Below, in pieces: positions 41,456 through 51,475 of a DNA stretch of 64,000 bases. The notes under the pieces were generated by a model. That model ran no database searches, was not told the origin of the DNA, and saw only the letters and a program-made list of their open reading frames with translations. Source of the stretch: Candidatus Daviesbacteria bacterium (GTDB lineage Bacteria > Patescibacteriota > Microgenomatia > Daviesbacterales > UBA10151); NCBI GenBank assembly GCA_028715175.1, contig JAQUSJ010000001.1, forward strand, positions 404,550 to 468,549, written 5' to 3'. How positions within the stretch are numbered: the stretch's first letter is position 1; each line of letters opens with the position of its first letter. A program made the position numbers and the translations under genes.

Positions 41456-44400
41456 TCAAGATGGTCTTAAAAAGATTCCAAGACCGGATCGAACTAAGTG
41501 TGCAGCAATTCTGGGTGTCTCTCTTTTGTTTAAGGAACCTAGTAACATTCTGAATAATTCAGAACTGCTGAATCCGCTTGTATAGGTACTAAGTTTTGAA
41601 GTTGCCAATATCACCGAGGTTAGCATTTCAGGAGGTTGAGTTGAAGCCTTTTGGCTTGCCCGAAGTAACCTCAAGGTATTTTCTGCAAAGTTAAACCTTG
41701 TAAGCCCCAAAGCATTATTACCTAAATCCCACCCCATATTTTTAAGGGTGTTCTTCAAGTAAGCTTCATTACCTGAAGCTAAACCAGCAACTAAAGAAAT
41801 TGTTGCAAATCTTTGTTCAGTAGTAAGGTTTTGATGCATGCCTAAATCAATAAATATTAAGTTCCCTTGTTGATCCACAAAGATATTGCCGGGGTGCAAA
41901 TCTGCATGGATATTACCAGTGGTAATAAGTTGCGATAAGGCTTCTGTTACTATAGTTTGATTAATAACTTGTCCTGATAATGCGCCATAACCACTGGTTA
42001 TTAACTGATCCGCACCTTGCTCTCTTAAATCCCTGTAAGCTCGCAAGCTTATACCAGGGGCTACACTTTCCAGCATTACATCCTCTGATGTGAAATAAAT
42101 TTTAGGTATTGATACCTGTTGTCTCCTTTTAGAATTCCTTTCTGCAAGATCGGCTCTTAATTGGTCACTAAACTGTTTTTCCCTAGTAAAATCAAGCTCT
42201 TTATTAACAGCGTCACTAATTTGGGCTGAAAAATCCCTCGGCAAACTTTCTGCATATCCCCTCTGGTTTAATACTTCAATAATCTGTCGCATAACTCTTA
42301 GATCATGCTCGATGTTTTCTTTTTTTTGAGCTGATGGTCTTTTAAATTTACCCACTACTTGATAGCTTCCTTTTGGTAAGCCAACTGATTCATCTGTGAC
42401 TTCAACTGTTAGAAGGCAAGCCTGCTTATTTGAAGCAGCACCAATCAAATCATCAAAGGAGATTATTCTAATAGGACTGGTCGGATCTAATAAACCTGCA
42501 TCTTCAGCTAGAACCATCAATGCTCTTTTGGGAACTGTTTCACCTTCTGACTGAGATCTACGCAACGTTTTTCTGTAGGAATCCGGTACCCAATCTAATT
42601 CAGCTAAAGATTGAGATACTTTCTTACCAACTACTCCAAGCTCATTCAAGCTGATGGCTATAACCTCCTCAGGCGGTAATTTTTTCCCTCCAGCCTGAGC
42701 ATCTATAAAACTATTGAGTAGCTTAACTAAGGTCCTGCTGGCATGAGGTGGATCAGAGGATTCTAAAACAGATGTAAAAATATCTCTAAACAAAGCCACG
42801 TTCGGCATATCTTCCGGTAAAAATTCCGCTGCTAAAGCTCCGATAAATTCCTTTCTTTGATTTCTGGCTTGTTCCGCTTGCTCTAAAGGTACTGCTTCTA
42901 AATCCAAAACTCCCTCTGCACCTAAAAATAACCTTTTGAACAAAACTTCCCTTTCTACTCCTGTACTTACTGCTACTGTTTGAGGTAATCCATTTAAATG
43001 ACCATCAAAATTTCTCTCAATACCTAATATCGCTTTAGACTTTTCATTTGATAATCCTAAAAGCCAGAGAGTGGTTGCAATTTTATCTTCTCTATTCTGC
43101 TCTCCTATTTTATCAATTACAAAAACCATCGGCGAGCTATCCTGCTTATCCTTTTTACCCTCAGATGAGATCCTCAAACTATCCAGAACTTGCAATTGTT
43201 CAGGCGAAAGCCTAGCTGTGTTTTCAAAATTATTTAGGAAATGATTGCGCTGCAATGAAGCCTTAGGTAAGTAATATAAAAGTAAGTTAGTAAATTCATT
43301 AAAGTCTTTATGTAACTCCGGCCTTAAACTCAACTCTGAAGAAAACACAATTGCTGCTAAATGGTTTCTTAACCCAGAATCAGGTGTAAACAAAGGCAGT
43401 AAAGTTTTACCTGCAATTACTCTTTCTTGTGGTGTTTTAGCAGTATTTAGGGCGGCTTCAAGCATCATTTCTAAATGAATATCTCTTACAACAGAAGGTG
43501 AAGCTGCTACTCTTTGTAGTTCTGTAACCCGTTCTTCTAATGAGTACTTATTATCAAATAGAGTGTTTTCTACCCACAATAATCTTTGCGCCTGGAAACG
43601 TTGACGAATTGATCCATAATCTGAAGAATTACGGCCCGAAAGAGATCGTGATGTAGCAAAAGAATGCCGCCTTTTTAAAAGATCATCAAAATTTTCGCCC
43701 ACTCTGCCTAATCCTCTCCATGCCGGAAAGATTCTCTGCCAATCTTCAGATTTGATTGACCTTTTTTTAATCAGATAATCATCATAGTTGGTTGACGAAT
43801 GTTTGGTATCATCGCCTTCATCAGGAGAGAAAACTAAGTAGGCAGGCATTTTTTCAATATAGTTAGTTTTTAATTCTTCAGAAGCAAGCTCATAAAGCGA
43901 TAATAAATATTTTTCTCTATTGATGGAGGAGGGAAAATTAGATACGACCCATTCAACTGCCTGGTCTTGATATTTGTTTATTACAGCCTGCAACCCAATT
44001 TCCAAATCACCAACCTTCCATCCTTGATTACGATCCTCAAAACTTTTATCTAAATTTGATTCATTTAATTCTTCATCCTTAAATGTTTTTCTTTCGTCAA
44101 AAGGTATTTGTGCATAAAACAATAGACTTTCGTAAAATCCTGTTTGTCTTTGGCGTATTGTTGGACTTTTATTTAAGTAACTTAATATCTGTTCTATTTG
44201 GGCATCAGTCATATCAGAGAAGCATTCTCCAACATCTACACGTCTATCATGATCCAACCAAATTTGCCCAAATCGCTGTAGTTCTCCAAGGTTTATATCT
44301 TTATCGGCTACAGAAATTATCGCCTTGACTAAAGCTTCTTGGTAGGATTGGCCTTGCTGAAGGTTTTGAGAAAAGAATCTGCTTAAGAATTCAAAAGATA

Positions 44401-46846
44401 CGTTTGATTCCAAATCTGGGTTCCAGTTTTGGTATGTTTTCTTACCACCTACAACTCTAATGATTCTAACTAAACTATCTAATTCTTCATCTGTAAATTT
44501 GCTAAAGTTATGTACATCCTGGCAATCTAAGTATCCATCCACGAGCTCTTTAAGTTGATCCGGTGGCCAAGGGGGGTTTTTCATCAGAAGCTCCATATCT
44601 GTCGCCGGAATTACATATTTTTTTGACCATTTTGGCCATTCTCGAATTTTACCTAATTCTGCGGTTAATCTCTGATCAGGTGTTTGGCCTGCTTCAATTT
44701 GTTTTATGTAGCAATAAATAAAACCTATTGCTCTTAGTTCAGCAAACTGCTTATTGTCTACCTTACTAAGAATTAACCAATCTTCAAGGGGCAGATTTAC
44801 ATTGTTGTACCTAACAACTGTTGCGCGAGGAGAACCTAGCTCTTTTTGCATGATACCATCTAAAGGTTCTGTTACTGCCATATCGTATATTTCCTGCCCC
44901 AGCATTTCTTTAATTTGTGCAGTTATACCCCCAAGCTCATCTGGCTTTGATCCGATTGAAACACTTAAAGCTTTATGAATTGATCTTCGCGGGGACAGTT
45001 TGATACCATCTCCAAAATCCAGTTGGTCAAATGCGTTCAAAGCTCTTAAATAAAGATCTTTATTTCTTTGAGCTAACACATTCGTCCATTCATCATCTGT
45101 CCTCCATCTTCCATATGATAACGACATGTAACTTTTAGCTGTAGATGATGCTAAATTAGGAGGTAAACCAGTTTCTTTTGATATAAGACTAGCTAACTGG
45201 TTAATAATTTTTTCATTTGGCTGATAAAAATCTCCAATGCAGTCTACAGCTATTCCAACCTTAATTTGATCTATAATTTGATTTCTAATATGGCTATCCG
45301 TAAAATCAATAGATAGTTCCGTAAAATCTGCTCGATCTCTCCTGCCGCTTGCTCTATCTTCTTCCGCTCTTTCCTGATACTCTTGCTGATTACGGGTCTT
45401 ATCTAACTTTAAGTAGGCAGTTCGCATAACGTTTTCAGTGATTTGATTTGTTCTGTAACAACTAGCTGTTTCTTCCAGAAATTTCCTTTCTGGTGCGCTT
45501 ATATTTTGAGTAACTAATAGCGCAAAACCATCCTGGCATACATGGTCTAAAAATCTTTCAAAGTCTTGCAATAAAACAGCTTGAGCTCTAACAGTATCGG
45601 TAGGAAGTGTAATAGGTTTAATTAGGCCCCTAAATTCATAGCTGGCGTTTGCCTCCATTAAAGCCTCCTCTGCACGAATCATCTCTGTCCAAGTGCTGGC
45701 TATATCACGGCTGGGTATATCTCCCTCAGGCCTATAACCCAACTCTTTTTCTTGTGTATACCATGATTGATCCTCACGTAATTCAATTCTTTCTTCTTTG
45801 CCATCAACAATATAAGTGTGCTGGCAAAGAGCTTTACAAATAACCACCTTTTTAGCGATTCTGTCATAAAGTTCTTGTTGTTCAACTATTGCTCCCTTCG
45901 CAACTCCGACTCTTTCAACATGCTCTTTTAATATCTGAATATCCCAAAATTCCTTTTGACTCTTTGATTGCATAAGCATTTGATCAATATCTTCCATGGG
46001 CTTTGCAATAACAGTTTCAGTCGTTTTGTAGATTTCACTATCTTGGGAGATCCAATTAAGCAGATTAGGATCTGTTATTACTTGTCTGTCTTTGGAGGTA
46101 TTCGGGATTGGATGTTCGTCATCAGCTAACTCGTCCTCTAACTTCCTTATTCTATCTATAATTTCTGGATGGGAGATGTCACCCCTACCCATAGTTAAAG
46201 AGAATGACTTAAAAATCTCTATCATGGCATTGGGGTTATACTTAGCTCTCGCTAACCGCCTCATCCCTTCTGCATCGGCTCGATATTCTTCAGCATGAGA
46301 AAAAGAAGCTTTTAATCTTTCCCAGAAACTTTCATCCAGTTTTTTTACATAATCATCTCCCAATACCTCAGCATGTTTTAGTTCGTGAGCAATCACTGCG
46401 GCTATATGATCTTCGCTAAACTGAATTCCAGCTTTAGGGAGTCCTTCCTGAAGATGCCTTGCAAAACCGCGGCTTAAAACAACAGTTCGGGACCTAGGAT
46501 TAAAAAAAGCAATCATTTCTTCTGTATCAACAGTTACAACTTCTGTTTCTCCAGGAATGCCCAATTTTTCGGAAGCTCTTTGTACTAATTGCGAAAATTC
46601 ATGTGTTTGAGGAAGAATTTCCCCTTTTGTTTCTAAACTGGATCTAAGCTGCTCTCTTTGGGATGAATAATTAACTGCTGCAAAAGATATATCTGGATTT
46701 CTTGCTATTGTCATCCATTGGCTTGGGTTTGCCAGAGAAGCAAATTCTGTCTTTGAAGCTAGTCTGCCGCCGACATCTGGTTTAGGGATAACAGCAGCTT
46801 TTCCCTCTGTCTGCATTCCTTCGGTTTCTGTAGCACCAACAGTCAT
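41456..46846 (-). CDS. Giant multidomain protein (1796 aa): N-terminal soluble M48-like Zn-metallopeptidase domain + about 1200-aa unknown central region + C-terminal ABC1/UbiB-type atypical kinase domain
   Basis: N-terminus has VVLSRGF...AVIAHELKHAE (HExxH) then SHAEEYRADAEG, the HtpX/Ste24-type third-ligand motif. C-terminus has HADLHPGNIFVD...IDLG, the ABC1/ADCK catalytic and DFG-like motifs. No TM helices. Confidence 0.7.
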   Translation of the reverse strand: MTVGATETEGMQTEGKAAVIPKPDVGGRLASKTEFASLANPSQWMTIARNPDISFAAVNYSSQREQLRSSLETKGEILPQTHEFSQLVQRASEKLGIPGETEVVTVDTEEMIAFFNPRSRTVVLSRGFARHLQEGLPKAGIQFSEDHIAAVIAHELKHAEVLGDDYVKKLDESFWERLKASFSHAEEYRADAEGMRRLARAKYNPNAMIEIFKSFSLTMGRGDISHPEIIDRIRKLEDELADDEHPIPNTSKDRQVITDPNLLNWISQDSEIYKTTETVIAKPMEDIDQMLMQSKSQKEFWDIQILKEHVERVGVAKGAIVEQQELYDRIAKKVVICKALCQHTYIVDGKEERIELREDQSWYTQEKELGYRPEGDIPSRDIASTWTEMIRAEEALMEANASYEFRGLIKPITLPTDTVRAQAVLLQDFERFLDHVCQDGFALLVTQNISAPERKFLEETASCYRTNQITENVMRTAYLKLDKTRNQQEYQERAEEDRASGRRDRADFTELSIDFTDSHIRNQIIDQIKVGIAVDCIGDFYQPNEKIINQLASLISKETGLPPNLASSTAKSYMSLSYGRWRTDDEWTNVLAQRNKDLYLRALNAFDQLDFGDGIKLSPRRSIHKALSVSIGSKPDELGGITAQIKEMLGQEIYDMAVTEPLDGIMQKELGSPRATVVRYNNVNLPLEDWLILSKVDNKQFAELRAIGFIYCYIKQIEAGQTPDQRLTAELGKIREWPKWSKKYVIPATDMELLMKNPPWPPDQLKELVDGYLDCQDVHNFSKFTDEELDSLVRIIRVVGGKKTYQNWNPDLESNVSFEFLSRFFSQNLQQGQSYQEALVKAIISVADKDINLGELQRFGQIWLDHDRRVDVGECFSDMTDAQIEQILSYLNKSPTIRQRQTGFYESLLFYAQIPFDERKTFKDEELNESNLDKSFEDRNQGWKVGDLEIGLQAVINKYQDQAVEWVVSNFPSSINREKYLLSLYELASEELKTNYIEKMPAYLVFSPDEGDDTKHSSTNYDDYLIKKRSIKSEDWQRIFPAWRGLGRVGENFDDLLKRRHSFATSRSLSGRNSSDYGSIRQRFQAQRLLWVENTLFDNKYSLEERVTELQRVAASPSVVRDIHLEMMLEAALNTAKTPQERVIAGKTLLPLFTPDSGLRNHLAAIVFSSELSLRPELHKDFNEFTNLLLYYLPKASLQRNHFLNNFENTARLSPEQLQVLDSLRISSEGKKDKQDSSPMVFVIDKIGEQNREDKIATTLWLLGLSNEKSKAILGIERNFDGHLNGLPQTVAVSTGVEREVLFKRLFLGAEGVLDLEAVPLEQAEQARNQRKEFIGALAAEFLPEDMPNVALFRDIFTSVLESSDPPHASRTLVKLLNSFIDAQAGGKKLPPEEVIAISLNELGVVGKKVSQSLAELDWVPDSYRKTLRRSQSEGETVPKRALMVLAEDAGLLDPTSPIRIISFDDLIGAASNKQACLLTVEVTDESVGLPKGSYQVVGKFKRPSAQKKENIEHDLRVMRQIIEVLNQRGYAESLPRDFSAQISDAVNKELDFTREKQFSDQLRADLAERNSKRRQQVSIPKIYFTSEDVMLESVAPGISLRAYRDLREQGADQLITSGYGALSGQVINQTIVTEALSQLITTGNIHADLHPGNIFVDQQGNLIFIDLGMHQNLTTEQRFATISLVAGLASGNEAYLKNTLKNMGWDLGNNALGLTRFNFAENTLRLLRASQKASTQPPEMLTSVILATSKLSTYTSGFSSSELFRMLLGSLNKRETPRIAAHLVRSGLGIFLRPS

Positions 46847-47085
46847 ATTATCAGTCTATTACATTCATAGTTTTAGTGCTACTTTAATCGTCAATTAGAA
46901 AACTATTGTAATTACCGGTTAGGTTGGGCAGAGGGGGTAGCAGGTTTGGGTTGAATAGGAGCAGGATTAGAATAAACAGGAGTAGATTTATCTCCTGTAT
47001 CAAAAATATTAACTTCTTTTAACCTCGTCCATTTTTCTTGCCTAATTATTGCACAAAGGGGAGTTAGGGTCTGGTGCAGTTAGTT

Positions 47086-47145
47086 CACCTCGAAGGAGTC
47101 TCCTTCGACTACGCTCAGGATTTTAAAAAGCTCACCTTCGAGGTG
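47086..47145 (+). promoter_or_regulatory. Nested inverted-repeat element upstream of otsA (CACCTCGAAGG...CCTTCGAGGTG with inner GAAGGAGtcTCCTTC)
   Basis: 11-bp perfect outer arms separated by 38 nt. The inner palindrome competes for the same 5' arm. Confidence 0.5.
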
Positions 47146-47207
47146 TTGTTAAATAGGTTGGACAGAAGTGGAAGTTTGGCTCATTTTGGAGTAGAATATC
47201 CAGATTC

Positions 47208-49442
47208 ATGAAACAAGTTATTGCAGCGCTCCTTGTTATCATAACCATAATTACTCTTTTTGTCGTTGCATTTACTGTTAATCAGGTAGGGGAAGAAGAG
47301 CAAAGACTTAAATCCGACCTGCAATACCGGTCCATGCTTCTTACCGAGAGCCTAAAAGCAACAGTTGAACCGAACCTTACTAGCGAATCAGCAAATTATT
47401 TACAAAGTGCGGTAGAGAAGTTTGCTAATAAGGAAAGGGTCACTGGTTTGGTAATTTATGACAATAAAAGTAAGGTGATGGCGGTTTCTTCTACAATTCT
47501 TGAGGCTACTTCTGCGGCTTCCGAGATAGTTACTAATGCCATGGATGCGGATAAAGCGAATGGAAATTTTGAGACACTGGAAAATAAAAAAGTTTATATT
47601 TTAGCAGTACCAATGCATGATGACAAAAGTGTAGTGGGCGCGTTGATGGTGATACAAAATGCCGGATATATTGATGACCGCTTAAATGAAATCTGGAAAA
47701 ATAATCTTATCAGGTTGGTCGTTCAGGCATCACTGCTCTCTTTTGCTACACTGCTTTTAATACGCTGGATTATTTACAAACCAATCCGTGGTTTGGTTGA
47801 GACATTAAAATTAGCAAGAATGGGAGGATCAGAACAGCTCCCCAAAGGTTTAACAAGCTCTTTTTTCTTTCGACCCCTTGTTGAAGAAATTTCAAATATG
47901 AGAAGCAGTTTAATGGAGGCCAGAATTTCCGCCAGCGAAGAAGCCAGGCTTCGCCTGGAAAAATTAGATTCTCCGTGGACAGCAGAGAGATTGAAGGAAT
48001 TTATCAAAGATATTTTAAAAGGAAGGACTATTTTTATGGTTTCCAACAGGGAGCCTTATATTCACACAAAAACAGGTAGAAAAATCGATTATTATTTTCC
48101 GGCCAGCGGCGTGGTTACGGCAATTGAGCCGGTGATGCAGGCTTGCGGCGGGGTCTGGATTGCCCATGGAAGCGGTGATGCAGACCGGCTGGTTGTTGAT
48201 AGCAACAGCAAAATAAAAGTTCCGCCCGATGAACCAAAATACGTACTGCGGCGTATCTGGTTAACTGAGCAGGAAGAAGTAGGTTATTATTACGGCTTTT
48301 CAAATGAAGCATTATGGCCTCTTTGTCATATAGCTTACCAGAGACCGATCTTTAAAAAAGAAGATTGGGAAGAGTATAAAAAAGTCAATCAAAAGTTTGC
48401 CGATGTTATCCTTTCCGAAATAAAAAACCATGATCGGCCGATTGTTTTAATTCAGGATTTTCACCTGGCTTTGGTTCCGAAAATGGTCAAGATGCAAAGA
48501 CCAGGGGCTGTCGTAGGGATTTTTTGGCATATTCCCTGGTCAAGCCCGGAATCTTTTAGTATCTGCCCCTGGAAAAAGGAAATTTTAGACGGCATGTTGG
48601 GAGCGGATCTTATTGGTTTTCAGACTCAACTTCACTGCAATAATTTTATTGAAACGGCAGGTAGAGAACTTGAATCCCTCATAGATTTTGAACGGTTCGC
48701 AATTACCAGAAGCAACCATACCTCCTATGTCAAACCATTTCCAATCAGTATTGCTTTTCCAGACGGTTTTGATAAAACGAAAGATCTGGATGGAAAAGAG
48801 GAAAAAGAGCGCTTGCTCAAGAGCTTAAGGATTAAGACTAAATATATCGGGCTGGGGATTGACAGGCTTGATTATACCAAAGGAATTTTGGAACGGTTTA
48901 AAGCGATTGAGATTTTCCTAAATAGATACCCGCCTTACAAAGGTAAATTTACCTTTGTCCAAATTGCCGCCCCCAGCAGAACCAGAATTAAAAAATACCG
49001 TGATTTTGCAATTGAGGTAGAAAACGAAGCGGACAGAATCAATGCTTTATTTAAAGCAAAAACCTGGAAGCCGATTATACTTTTGGCAAAACATCACAGC
49101 CACAGTGAAATCCAGAAATTTTACAGAGCGACGGATTTTTGTCTGGTGACATCCTTACATGACGGAATGAATCTGGTGGCAAAAGAATATGTGGCCTCAA
49201 GATATGATGAAAAGGGAGTTTTAATTTTGAGCCAATATACCGGTGCTTCAAGAGAGTTGAAAGATGCCTTGATTGTCAATCCCTACAATGGAGAACAAAC
49301 AGCAGACGCCATAAAGAAAGCGCTGGAGATGACTGCAAAAGAGCAGACCAAAAGGATGCGCAGCATGAGGGAAATAATCAAAAATTATAATGTTTACCGC
49401 TGGTCGGCAGAACTTTTAAAGACTATAGTCAATTTAGGGTAA
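47208..49442 (+). CDS. otsA: Membrane sensor (TM-periplasmic domain-TM-HAMP-like) fused to trehalose-6-phosphate synthase (GT20)
   Basis: Two TM helices (res about 5-23 and about 165-190) bracket a roughly 140-aa extracytoplasmic domain. The GT20 catalytic domain follows (FMVSNREPY, GIFWHIPW, LHDGMNLVAKEY). Confidence 0.8.
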   Translation: MKQVIAALLVIITIITLFVVAFTVNQVGEEEQRLKSDLQYRSMLLTESLKATVEPNLTSESANYLQSAVEKFANKERVTGLVIYDNKSKVMAVSSTILEATSAASEIVTNAMDADKANGNFETLENKKVYILAVPMHDDKSVVGALMVIQNAGYIDDRLNEIWKNNLIRLVVQASLLSFATLLLIRWIIYKPIRGLVETLKLARMGGSEQLPKGLTSSFFFRPLVEEISNMRSSLMEARISASEEARLRLEKLDSPWTAERLKEFIKDILKGRTIFMVSNREPYIHTKTGRKIDYYFPASGVVTAIEPVMQACGGVWIAHGSGDADRLVVDSNSKIKVPPDEPKYVLRRIWLTEQEEVGYYYGFSNEALWPLCHIAYQRPIFKKEDWEEYKKVNQKFADVILSEIKNHDRPIVLIQDFHLALVPKMVKMQRPGAVVGIFWHIPWSSPESFSICPWKKEILDGMLGADLIGFQTQLHCNNFIETAGRELESLIDFERFAITRSNHTSYVKPFPISIAFPDGFDKTKDLDGKEEKERLLKSLRIKTKYIGLGIDRLDYTKGILERFKAIEIFLNRYPPYKGKFTFVQIAAPSRTRIKKYRDFAIEVENEADRINALFKAKTWKPIILLAKHHSHSEIQKFYRATDFCLVTSLHDGMNLVAKEYVASRYDEKGVLILSQYTGASRELKDALIVNPYNGEQTADAIKKALEMTAKEQTKRMRSMREIIKNYNVYRWSAELLKTIVNLG

Positions 49443-49444
49443 TT

Positions 49445-50230
49445 ATGGATTTATGGAAAGATTTAAACAAAATTACCGCTCTTTTTAAGAGAGGCCCCAT
49501 AAAAATTTTAATGCTGGATTTTGACGGCACTTTAGCTCCGATTGCCGGATCTCCGGATAAAGCAAAGCTTTCAAAAGAATCTAAAAATTTATTAATCAAG
49601 CTTAGCAAAAAGAAGGGGTTTTATTTGGCAATTATCAGCGGTAGAAGCTTAAGCGAGCTGAAAAAGAAAGTTAACTTAAAAAACATCATCTATGCTGGCA
49701 ATCATGGGTTGGAGGGAGAAATTTTTCAGCAAAAGTATGCCTTTCCTGTCCCGGACAAAGCTTTAATGACTTTAAAAAATATCCGCGGGCAACTTGATAA
49801 AATAGCCGGCCGGTTTAAAGGGGTCTTTATTGAGGATAAAGGTTTAACATTAAGTTTTCACTACCGGCTGGTCAGTAAACAACAAGTACCTCCTGTTAAA
49901 TTACTTTTTAAGAAAACGCTGAAGTCTTATCTTAAAACTGGCTTAATTTATATCATGACGGGAAAAATGGTCTTTGATGTACGACCAAGACTAAATTGGA
50001 ATAAAGGCAGTTTTGCAAAGCTGGTAATTAACCAAATACATATACAAACAAAAACAATACCGGTCGTCGTTTTTATTGGTGACGACAAAACCGATGAGGA
50101 CGTTTTTCAAAAAGTTGGAAAAGGAATTACTATAAAAGTAGGCGGTGATTACCGGTCAAACGCTAAGTATCGGTTTAGTAATACCAAAGATGTTTTTAAG
50201 TTTCTTGAGTGGATAGCAGATAATTTCTAG
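49445..50230 (+). CDS. otsB: Trehalose-6-phosphate phosphatase (HAD family)
   Basis: LMLDFDGTLAPI (HAD motif I), ISGRS and GDDKTDED (motif III). Confidence 0.8.
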   Translation: MDLWKDLNKITALFKRGPIKILMLDFDGTLAPIAGSPDKAKLSKESKNLLIKLSKKKGFYLAIISGRSLSELKKKVNLKNIIYAGNHGLEGEIFQQKYAFPVPDKALMTLKNIRGQLDKIAGRFKGVFIEDKGLTLSFHYRLVSKQQVPPVKLLFKKTLKSYLKTGLIYIMTGKMVFDVRPRLNWNKGSFAKLVINQIHIQTKTIPVVVFIGDDKTDEDVFQKVGKGITIKVGGDYRSNAKYRFSNTKDVFKFLEWIADNF

Positions 50231-50263
50231 TCACTATAAATAATTTTCTGATATAGTAAATAT

Positions 50264-51475
50264 ATGGCGGATATAAAAGAGGAATGTCGTCGGATTTTTT
50301 CAAATAACCGACGTAAAGTTAGAGATCTTCAATATACCGTTCCTTCTCCCAGCGCTTATCCATATCAGTGGCTATGGGATTCTTGCTTTCATGCCATAAT
50401 TTTGGTTCACTTTAAAACAGGTGATGCAAAAAAAGAAATTCTGTCGCTTTTGTCAAAACAGTTTCAAAATGGGATGATCCCTCATATGATTTATTGGAAA
50501 AAATATAAAAAGACCAATTTCCCCCGGATTAAGTGGGGAAAAGAAGAAACCAGTACTATTACTCAACCGCCAATGCTCGCATTTGCAGTGTGGCAGATTT
50601 TTCAAAAGGAAAAAGATAAACTTTTCTTAAGATCGGTTTATCCTCATCTTTACCACTTTTACAGATATTTGCTAACCGAGCGCGATCCTCATGAAAATCA
50701 TCTGATTGGAATTATGAATTCTGATGAATCCGGCGAAGACAACTCTCCCAGATTTGATTTACCTTTAGGATTACCGCCGGTGCAGACTCTAAAAGAAAAT
50801 ATTAAAAGAAGGCTCAAATTAGTGGCTCAAAATATTGAGTGTAAATTTGATGCCCCATTTTGTATGAGGAATTTTTTCTGGGTTAAAGATATATCTTTTA
50901 ATTCCATTATGGTAGCAAATTTAGCTTTTTTGGCAAAACTTGCCGGGGAGTTGGGTAACAGCGAGGATGCTGCCTATTTTATTAAAGTAGCAGAAGATAT
51001 ATCTTCTGCTATGAGACAATTTATGCGGGAAGATGGTGTTTTTTACTCAACTTATGGGGAGGAATACAAAAAGATTAAAGTTAAGACTTGGGCCATATTT
51101 GCTCCGCTTTTTGCTAAAATCCTTAAGCCTCAGGAGGCGAAACAATTAGTTAATCGGCACTTGCTTAACAAGAAGGAGTTTTGGACGAATTTTCCGATTC
51201 CTACTACTTCTTTAGATGAACCGTCCTTTGACCCCCAAGGCTATTGGAGAGGACCGACATGGATAGCGACTAATTGGTTTGTCTATAAGGGTTTGTTAAA
51301 TTACGGCTTCCGGGACATAGCAGAAGAGATTAAAAAATCCTCTACTGGTTTAATTCAAAAATCCGGCTTCCGTGAATATTTTAATCCCCAAACAGGGGAG
51401 GGATTAGGGGCAGAGAATTTTACTTGGGGCGGGCTAGTTATAGATATGGATGGATTTGGTACAATTAATGAGTGA
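50264..51475 (+). CDS. Six-hairpin (alpha/alpha)6 glycoside hydrolase (GH63/GH37/GH15-like; trehalase or glucosylglycerate-hydrolase-like)
   Basis: YQWLWDSCFHAIIL and later WRGPTWIATNWFVYKGL resemble (alpha/alpha)6-barrel glycosidase motifs. Placement after otsAB. Confidence 0.5.
   Translation: MADIKEECRRIFSNNRRKVRDLQYTVPSPSAYPYQWLWDSCFHAIILVHFKTGDAKKEILSLLSKQFQNGMIPHMIYWKKYKKTNFPRIKWGKEETSTITQPPMLAFAVWQIFQKEKDKLFLRSVYPHLYHFYRYLLTERDPHENHLIGIMNSDESGEDNSPRFDLPLGLPPVQTLKENIKRRLKLVAQNIECKFDAPFCMRNFFWVKDISFNSIMVANLAFLAKLAGELGNSEDAAYFIKVAEDISSAMRQFMREDGVFYSTYGEEYKKIKVKTWAIFAPLFAKILKPQEAKQLVNRHLLNKKEFWTNFPIPTTSLDEPSFDPQGYWRGPTWIATNWFVYKGLLNYGFRDIAEEIKKSSTGLIQKSGFREYFNPQTGEGLGAENFTWGGLVIDMDGFGTINE

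Follow-up and report, generated by a model that had tools for sequence, protein, structure and literature searches.

The window analysed here is a 64,000-nucleotide stretch of the Candidatus Daviesbacteria bacterium contig JAQUSJ010000001.1 (G+C about 38%), and its subject is a gene for a trehalose-6-phosphate synthase (OtsA) whose catalytic part is fused to a sensor-like module. The 744-residue product, to which we refer as sensor-OtsA, starts with a transmembrane (TM) helix, continues with a predicted extracytoplasmic Cache domain, a second TM helix and a divergent HAMP domain, and ends in a catalytic domain of glycosyltransferase family GT20. The reading that we favor, with somewhat better than even confidence, is that this is a one-protein transmembrane receptor with a biosynthetic enzyme as its output, in which an outside signal would switch trehalose-6-phosphate synthesis. 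Direct gating by an external signal, which a first-pass annotation of this DNA had read from the gene layout, is plausible on the basis of the architecture, the conservation of the junction between sensor and enzyme, and the reuse of the same module on a second enzyme.

The Cache-HAMP module and its fusion to OtsA

Three closely packed open reading frames (ORFs) lie on the plus strand (Table 1), and the first of them encodes the whole of sensor-OtsA without a break. Their coordinates and lengths are exactly those of the first-pass annotation when the layout is recomputed. The order of TM helix, extracytoplasmic domain, TM helix, HAMP-like segment and GT20 domain that had been noticed in the letters was borne out by hydropathy, Pfam, family profiles and structure models. 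The product is 100% identical to the NCBI protein 'trehalose-6-phosphate synthase [Candidatus Daviesbacteria bacterium]', which comes from a metagenome-assembled genome (MAG; 743,708-bp contig). A concern raised at the outset was that the N-terminal residues might belong to a separate, mis-merged gene. This is excluded, as the ORF is single and the N-terminal module and GT20 share one frame in 80/80 independent loci. There are also more than 120 full-length clusters, which come from many studies and from contigs of up to 770 kb, so that an assembly or annotation artefact was ruled out and the chance of two genes joined by a frameshift or a chimeric contig is negligible. The absence of a two-component relay, likewise suggested before, holds for the protein: the Pfam scan of sensor-OtsA found no HisKA or HATPase_c domain at E values up to 0.1, with GT20 filling that space, and no receiver or other signalling output domain.

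Based on hydropathy, two TM helices enclose about 142 residues, and the Cache domain fills this whole interval. Because TM2 is followed by a cluster of basic residues and the nucleotide sugars that GT20 needs are cytoplasmic, we infer a topology with a cytoplasmic N-terminus, the Cache domain outside, and HAMP and GT20 inside. A search with residues 1-275 returned 44 homologues, many of them running on into GT20. When 33 of these were scanned with Pfam, dCache_1 was matched in 17 (best E 8e-7), Cache_WalK in 10 and sCache_3_2 in 9, and further matches were to SMP_2 (22/33) and CHASE8 (4/33). The Cache region of the window copy itself is sub-threshold in Pfam (SMP_2 at 0.0047). The family profile reaches the extracellular domain of S. 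aureus WalK (E 2e-4) and KinD (5e-3), and N-terminal profiles give weak hints of YfiN/DgcN and of a YfiR-associated kinase.

The AlphaFold 2 (AF2) model of residues 1-275 (mean pLDDT 81.3) shows a single-Cache topology with helices at 2-58, 62-73 and 100-114, in which the long first helix precedes a PAS-like core made up of five strands and two helices. Helix 153-205 is continuous and leads from the C-terminal helix of the Cache domain through TM2 into the first HAMP helix (AS1). The best PDB match found by Foldseek is 9a5d_A, a model of full-length WalK (264 aligned columns, E 4.8e-11); next come crystal structures of the extracellular domain of S. aureus WalK (target-normalised TM-score 0.69-0.79) and then KinD. 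The WalK matches by fold are 9a5d_A, 4ywz, 7dud and 5is1. By both fold and profile, WalK (YycG) and other Cache-HAMP histidine kinases are the best counterparts of the input half, which is alike in having TM1, a single-Cache domain, TM2 and HAMP. Unlike WalK, sensor-OtsA lacks PAS, DHp and catalytic ATPase domains as well as a response regulator, and its output is a glycosyltransferase. Across the 68 complete genes that were compared, 24 of the 142 extracytoplasmic positions are at least 90% conserved, and many of these are polar (D37, R41, Q66, R77, S94, D113, D115, Y130, Q150 and Y154). Such polar conservation outside the membrane is the pattern that a ligand- or partner-binding domain would show. 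One metagenomic member of 913 amino acids (P0168) has its extracytoplasmic domain duplicated in tandem, with about 170 extra residues ahead of TM2, HAMP and GT20.

The segment directly after TM2 consists of about 50 residues with a helix-connector-helix layout, and the model places its helices at 153-205 and 219/222-248/254. Pro192 is at least 90% conserved in the 68 genes and Gly206 is at least 90% conserved in N-terminal alignments. The Pfam HAMP model (PF00672) has no match in the window copy, and it was the top family for this segment in 5 of 19 diverse members (best E 3e-4). As a calibration, the genuine HAMP domain of E. coli PhoQ scores 21.5 bits (E 2.9e-4) and is itself under the Pfam cutoff of 25. 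We then have a profile-profile comparison, in which hhalign aligned the family with the Pfam-delimited HAMP domains of E. coli Tap, Tar, Tsr, EnvZ, NarX, CpxA and PhoQ over 48 columns (probability 77%, E 2e-5, score 26.8), with Pro192 and the connector glycine in register. The controls scored 9.0 +/- 1.8 for 200 column shuffles, with a maximum of 14.5, and 7.1 for the reversed profile. This comparison supersedes a search of the PDB with a profile against single sequences, which retrieved no HAMP chain and only spurious Exo70 and ClpB matches. On these profile comparisons we accept the segment as a divergent HAMP domain. The Cache and HAMP character that had first been proposed for the N-terminal residues is therefore seen at the level of the family, and the window copy alone stays sub-threshold.

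The rest of the protein is an OtsA-type GT20 domain. The PF00982 match covers residues 276-740 and profile positions 4-471 of 473, and the PDB matches to OtsA/Tps1 begin at about residue 271-299. Among the NCBIfam models, those for OtsA rank first but remain sub-cutoff (TIGR02400, 424.7 versus 564.85; NF011071, 491 versus 634), and the glucosylglycerol-phosphate synthase (GgpS) model gives 282 bits. Judged from these scores, sensor-OtsA is too divergent for automatic equivalog naming, and OtsA is still the best-scoring family. The domain was aligned to the OtsA of E. coli K-12 from NC_000913. The residues that we take to be the substrate-binding and catalytic ones of the E. coli enzyme are R9, G22, Y76, W85, D130, H154, R262, K267, R300, D361 and E369, numbers with which the residue letters of that sequence agree. 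Their equivalents are all present, as R281, G301, Y361, W370, D417, H441, R553, K558, R591, D652 and E660; Arg9 (Arg281 here) presumably binds the phosphate of glucose-6-phosphate. Because all the OtsA residues that we checked are kept, GT20 looks catalytically competent. Compared with canonical OtsA/Tps1 enzymes of the GT-B fold (E. coli, 1GZ5/1UQU; Mycolicibacterium thermoresistibile, 5JIJ), the catalytic alignment is end to end, the residues are kept and an otsB gene is adjacent. The canonical enzymes are soluble and begin at strand beta1, whereas sensor-OtsA adds 274 N-terminal residues with two TM helices, Cache, HAMP and junction, and scores under the NCBIfam OtsA equivalog cutoff.

The junction, a second fusion partner and possible modes of control

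No part of sensor-OtsA is more constrained than the junction (Table 1), a segment that soluble OtsA enzymes lack. The model of the whole protein (mean pLDDT 81.1) shows the second HAMP helix, AS2, extending to about residue 248 and followed by a loop (249-258), a helix (259-270) and strand beta1 of GT20 (275-279). This strand, which comes right after helix 259-270, bears the Ser279-Asn280-Arg281 motif of the acceptor site. The core of the junction, 'EEAxLR...WTxERL...SNREPY', is kept in the high-GC members of Acidobacteriota type, which lie outside the candidate phyla radiation (CPR).

The same input module is found on an unrelated enzyme. Protein P0204 (690 aa) matches the module profile at positions 3-233 (E 3.5e-52) and continues as a GCS2/YbdK-type carboxylate-amine ligase. 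This fusion is present in five clusters (P0204 and P0311-P0314; 682-717 aa, 72-100% identity, contigs up to 316 kb; loci L098:5001-7049 and L099:2119-4167), and its named members belong to Parcubacteria/Paceibacterota. Some 110 further GCS2 homologues have about 450 aa and are soluble. The OtsA-fused and GCS2-fused modules can be aligned from TM1 through the whole of AS2 (30% identity, E 2e-34). The alignment breaks off exactly where AS2 ends and the GT20-specific junction begins, and the junction motif is absent from the GCS2 fusion. Since the same module sits on an unrelated ligase with its breakpoint after AS2, it appears to behave as a portable signalling input.

How could such a receptor work? 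The protein would act as a dimer, like other Cache-HAMP receptors. A ligand or an envelope cue that acts on the Cache domain would shift TM2, and the HAMP bundle would turn this shift into a change of the junction helices. This may alter the acceptor-site geometry, the lobe closure or the protomer arrangement of GT20, so that synthesis is turned on or off, and OtsB would then free trehalose from trehalose-6-phosphate. Expression would come from a simple leaderless promoter, often along with the hydrolase, and because the promoter is simple and leaderless, control would be expected at the protein level and not at that of transcription. There are known enzymes with a related layout. HAMP-linked second-messenger enzymes include the mycobacterial adenylate cyclase Rv3645 and diguanylate cyclases of the YfiN/DgcN type. 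As proposed for sensor-OtsA, their TM sensor and HAMP domain control an enzyme in the same polypeptide. Their outputs serve signalling and their active sites lie across the dimer, whereas the output of sensor-OtsA is biosynthetic, with an active site that would lie within one protomer and a protectant as its product.

Several points weigh against a receptor function. The Cache and HAMP segments of the window copy are below the Pfam thresholds, and their assignments come from family profiles and predicted structure. The hhalign probability of 77% is under 95%, and the register of AS2 is uncertain. Among the cytoplasmic parts of the protein, the HAMP helices show the lowest conservation (mean pairwise identity 0.42). 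The active site of OtsA lies within one protomer, between two Rossmann lobes, and we know of no other case in which a HAMP domain controls a site of this kind. Finally, the role of a folded domain outside the membrane could be in localisation or in binding a partner, and not in sensing a ligand.

Two other explanations of the module were considered. In the first, it is a passive anchor or scaffold that does no more than hold OtsA at the membrane and dimerise it, and carries no signal, possibly so that trehalose is made beside the bilayer or the envelope-glycan machinery. The moderate conservation of the HAMP helices would fit this idea, as would the lack of a known ligand of the Cache domain. 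It would also fit the genes that the module adjoins in the window and in the two related loci L006/L007, which encode a Polysacc_synt flippase, a GT2 glycosyltransferase, Wzy_C and a PIG-V-like mannosyltransferase. We rejected this envelope-polysaccharide neighbourhood as a functional clue, as it is not conserved beyond one Daviesbacteria synteny block and is not kept in other lineages. Moreover, one TM helix would suffice for an anchor, and a 142-residue Cache domain with conserved polar residues and a HAMP domain would be superfluous. The high conservation of the junction and the reuse of the module on the GCS2 ligase also speak against a mere anchor, and we consider it unlikely.

In the second explanation, signalling takes place through a partner, with the Cache domain binding a membrane protein as in the WalK-WalH/WalI system of B. 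subtilis, or it runs inside-out, as in LapD, so that the outside would be informed of the catalytic state of GT20. The extracellular domain of WalK works with partner proteins, and WalK is the best structural match here, including the WalK-YycH integrative model. Against this, there is no conserved partner gene beside otsA across lineages, and the extracytoplasmic domain has no evident surface of the output type. The idea comes entirely from analogy, and we give it a very small chance. A receptor that directly gates its own catalytic domain remains the reading that we prefer.

Neighbouring genes and the upstream region

Table 1. Positions of the features in the window, with conservation by segment (mean pairwise identity among 68 complete genes)
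Feature	Positions	Strand	Mean pairwise identity	Remarks
Nested inverted repeat	47086..47145	.		Outer arms 47086-47096/47135-47145; nested arms 47090-47098/47100-47108
Putative -10 box TAGAAT	47192..47197	+		10 nt before ATG; TAnAAT kept in relatives
Sensor-OtsA gene (TM1, sCache, TM2, HAMP, junction, GT20)	47208..49442	+		Single unbroken ORF, 744 aa
TM1, N-terminal signal-anchor helix, residues 4-24	47217..47279	+	0.40	Kyte-Doolittle peak 3.17 (residues 4-22); part of AF2 helix 2-58
Predicted extracytoplasmic single-Cache domain (WalK-like, PAS-like alpha/beta), residues 25-166	47280..47705	+	0.50	Family Pfam matches, profile, Foldseek
TM2, residues 167-189	47706..47774	+	0.53	Kyte-Doolittle peak about 2.1; inside continuous model helix 153-205
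Divergent HAMP domain, residues 190-240	47775..47927	+	0.42	AS1 with Pro192, connector from Gly206, AS2 with invariant Glu227
Family-specific junction, residues 241-274, SASEEARLRLEKLDSPWTAERLKEF	47928..48029	+	0.71	Highest conservation; invariant columns
GT20 domain, residues 275-744	48030..49442	+	0.65	PF00982 E 3e-117; PDB OtsA/Tps1 1e-74 to 1e-60
otsB, trehalose-6-phosphate phosphatase (HAD-IIB)	49445..50230	+		261 aa; start 2 nt after otsA; Pfam Trehalose_PPase E 7e-41
Cytoplasmic GH63 (MGH1-like) alpha-glycosidase	50264..51475	+		403 aa; PF22422 E 4e-82; (alpha/alpha)6

The gene directly after otsA had been called otsB, and this name is well founded, as the product scores 157 bits with TIGR00685 versus an equivalog cutoff of 68 for trehalose-6-phosphate phosphatases (T6PP). 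The third gene encodes a glycosidase of family GH63. Its nearest solved relatives are the mannosylglycerate hydrolase TTHA0978 of Thermus (1e-52), the mycobacterial glucosylglycerate hydrolase and YgjK. It does not belong to a known trehalase family (GH37, GH65 or GH15), and the Trehalase model PF01204 gives only 2.5e-12 over 148 residues. The linkage of these genes was counted in the 65 loci with at least 1.5 kb of downstream sequence. An otsB gene lies downstream of otsA in 35 of these informative loci, in 32 of them within 150 nt. GH63 is found downstream in 15, together with otsB in 11 (nine in the order otsA-otsB-GH63 and two in the order otsA-GH63-otsB, at L022 and L023) and without otsB in 4. 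In some Daviesbacteria, GH63 comes straight after otsA and otsB is neither in between nor in the flank (L006/L007 8235-9419, L021, L028 and L034).

For the GH63 enzymes of the type of Mycolicibacterium hassiacum MhGgH, the catalytic residues and those of the -1 and +1 subsites have been listed, and the glycerate-binding Tyr88 and Tyr375, together with Trp177, are conserved in the characterised enzymes (PMC6608630). We compared these positions in 17 distinct otsA-linked sequences, from the window and from loci L007, L011, L013-L016, L022, L023, L026, L028, L032-L035, L040 and L055. The catalytic pair D159 and E371 and the -1 subsite residues W38, D39, G157 and W328 are invariant (17/17), and Q101 is present in 16. 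The +1 aglycone contacts are altered: in all 17 sequences Asp takes the place of Trp177, and one of N, D, S, G, A or T that of Tyr88, and Tyr375 is kept in 4. Since the catalytic pair and the -1 subsite are kept but the +1 contacts are changed, the enzyme is probably an active alpha-glycosidase that accepts a different aglycone, with trehalose as one candidate. The otsA-linked enzymes probably form a functionally distinct subgroup of GH63. With the glycerate hydrolases of this family (Thermus Tt8MGH, 2Z07/4WVA-C; MhGgH, 5OHC; PMC6608630) they have the (alpha/alpha)6 fold, the Asp/Glu pair and the -1 subsite in common. They differ from them in the replaced +1 contacts and in being linked to otsA/otsB instead of genes for glycosylglycerate synthesis. 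A function as glucosylglycerate hydrolase was rejected on the residues of the aglycone subsite. The proposal that the three genes give a complete make-and-break trehalose cycle can be followed only in part. The (alpha/alpha)6 hydrolase and otsB are both there, but a complete cycle is not established, as the hydrolase is a GH63 enzyme with changed aglycone contacts and is linked in 15 of the 65 loci.

These neighbours bear on the question of what GT20 makes. Its product could be a compound different from trehalose-6-phosphate, for example glucosylglycerol-phosphate or some other sugar phosphate, which would be recycled by GH63. The score of 424.7 versus the OtsA cutoff of 564.85 and the 282 bits of the GgpS model are in line with this, as are the characterised members of the hydrolase's family that cleave glycosyl-glycerates and the 30 of 65 informative loci in which otsB is not beside otsA. 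On the other hand, the OtsA models far outscore the GgpS model, and the contacts to glucose-6-phosphate and UDP-glucose that we take E. coli OtsA to use are all kept. The adjoining phosphatase is above the T6PP equivalog cutoff, and the glycerate-binding positions of GH63 are not conserved. Another product is thus improbable.

The 60 nt upstream of otsA were compared among loci L012-L091. A hexamer of the form TAnAAT ends 6-10 nt before the start codon in 38 of 69 loci, and a Shine-Dalgarno-like (SD-like) motif is present in only 5 of 72. Otherwise the upstream region is not conserved, and one locus has no intergenic space at all. Because the -10 box lies about 10 nt before the ATG and SD-like motifs are rare, the sensor-otsA family appears to be expressed, judging from these motifs, as a leaderless or near-leaderless mRNA.

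The inverted repeat that had been seen upstream of otsA and considered as a regulatory switch does exist, with perfect outer arms of 11 nt and nested arms of 9 nt, 63-122 nt upstream of the ATG. The part of the claim that concerns regulation was not supported. There is no second copy of the repeat within the window, the nested repeat is absent from the 91 related loci searched, and the closest relative (L014) keeps only the simpler outer hairpin. Its folding is no more stable than that of shuffled sequences (z = -0.68), and Rfam has no match. The repeat is lineage-specific, and as it lies upstream of the conserved -10 box, it is probably not part of the otsA transcript. On the grounds of the Rfam result, the z value, the lack of conservation and this position, a riboswitch or attenuator was rejected. 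The same applies to a remnant of a tRNA, as ARAGORN finds nothing in the window, and to phage or mobile DNA in the repeat or the intergenic region, for which there is no match in the phage collection. A terminator was rejected because the sole terminator-like match, on the minus strand, has a stem of 5 bp and no gene that it could terminate.

Some further observations were made in this region. A search for small intergenic ORFs gave nothing convincing; a 45-aa ORF with a GTG start (47074-47211, plus strand) overlaps the inverted repeat and ends in the region of the otsA start codon, and shows no sign of being a gene. Several relatives carry a tRNA gene (tRNA-Met or tRNA-Val) just upstream of sensor-otsA (L016:4862-4935, L013:4193-4266 and L021:4918-4994). 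On the minus strand of the window, at 41456-46846, lies the gene of a giant protein of 1,796 amino acids with an M48 metallopeptidase domain at its N-terminus and an ABC1 atypical-kinase domain at its C-terminus. Apart from the presence of otsB and the insertion of this 5.4-kb gene upstream, the window and L006/L007 are syntenic. As the gene is absent from L006/L007, it was gained or lost between signal peptidase and otsA, and the inverted repeat would lie at the boundary of the insertion.

Distribution and meaning of sensor-OtsA

The full-length search found more than 120 clusters of about 740-745 aa with 65-81% identity, in Daviesbacteria, Curtissbacteria, Levybacteria and other Patescibacteria. 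With the profile of the N-terminal module, 1,956 representatives (50% clustering) were found at E values up to 1e-3 and 166 at up to 1e-30, and 8 of the 10 longer matches that were scanned are GT20 fusions. Among the GTDB species representatives, 180 loci were confirmed. The in-frame count given above and the lineage spread rest on 80 of these, which come from Microgenomates, Parcubacteria, Doudnabacteria, Peribacteria and Saccharibacteria, with one bin labelled Limnocylindrales. Two sensor-OtsA clusters bear Acidobacteriota or Terriglobales labels. Many 'binchicken' MAGs with the CPR-type gene (L015, L019, L022, L026-L028 and others) are titled 'uncultured Gammaproteobacteria bacterium', which looks like a placeholder or a wrong taxonomic label.

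All database copies encountered in this analysis that have a functional name are called 'trehalose-6-phosphate synthase', and the remainder are unnamed or called 'hypothetical protein'. As the Cache and HAMP segments are below the Pfam thresholds, sensor-OtsA is invisible to domain-based annotation. A census of Cache domains reported them solely from proteins that carry a signalling output domain (PMC4822843). Sensor-OtsA departs from this pattern, as its cytoplasmic domains are HAMP and GT20 only. Our literature searches found no description of a Cache/HAMP-GT20 protein, a membrane OtsA or this architecture of a CPR trehalose synthase, and no paper describing the GCS2 fusion was found in the literature searched. 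OtsA and Cache-HAMP receptors are each known separately; what is apparently new is the combination of a Cache-HAMP input with an OtsA output, a fusion that seems to be undescribed.

With not quite even confidence, we propose that a WalK-like Cache-HAMP module wired to OtsA in CPR bacteria and Acidobacteriota, and to a GCS2 ligase in some Parcubacteria, represents an unrecognised class of 'receptor-enzymes', in which the 'EEAxLR...WTxERL' junction would be a dedicated coupler from HAMP to the GT-B fold. In censuses of signal transduction, the outputs of receptors are kinases, signalling domains of chemoreceptors, enzymes of cyclic-nucleotide metabolism, phosphatases and DNA-binding domains. A Cache-HAMP receptor with a biosynthetic glycosyltransferase as its output falls outside this list. 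If our proposal is correct, a cue from outside would change the synthesis of a metabolite within one protein, bypassing kinases, second messengers and transcription. If the signalling is real, sensor-OtsA would be a new and testable case of a HAMP output coupled to a GT-B enzyme, and it would serve as a natural blueprint for glycosyltransferases that a ligand can switch. In metabolic reconstructions of CPR bacteria, the entry 'OtsA present' need not mean that trehalose is synthesized constitutively. Real signalling by this protein would also show how CPR bacteria, with their small genomes and few regulators, may tie the synthesis of a protectant to their surroundings.

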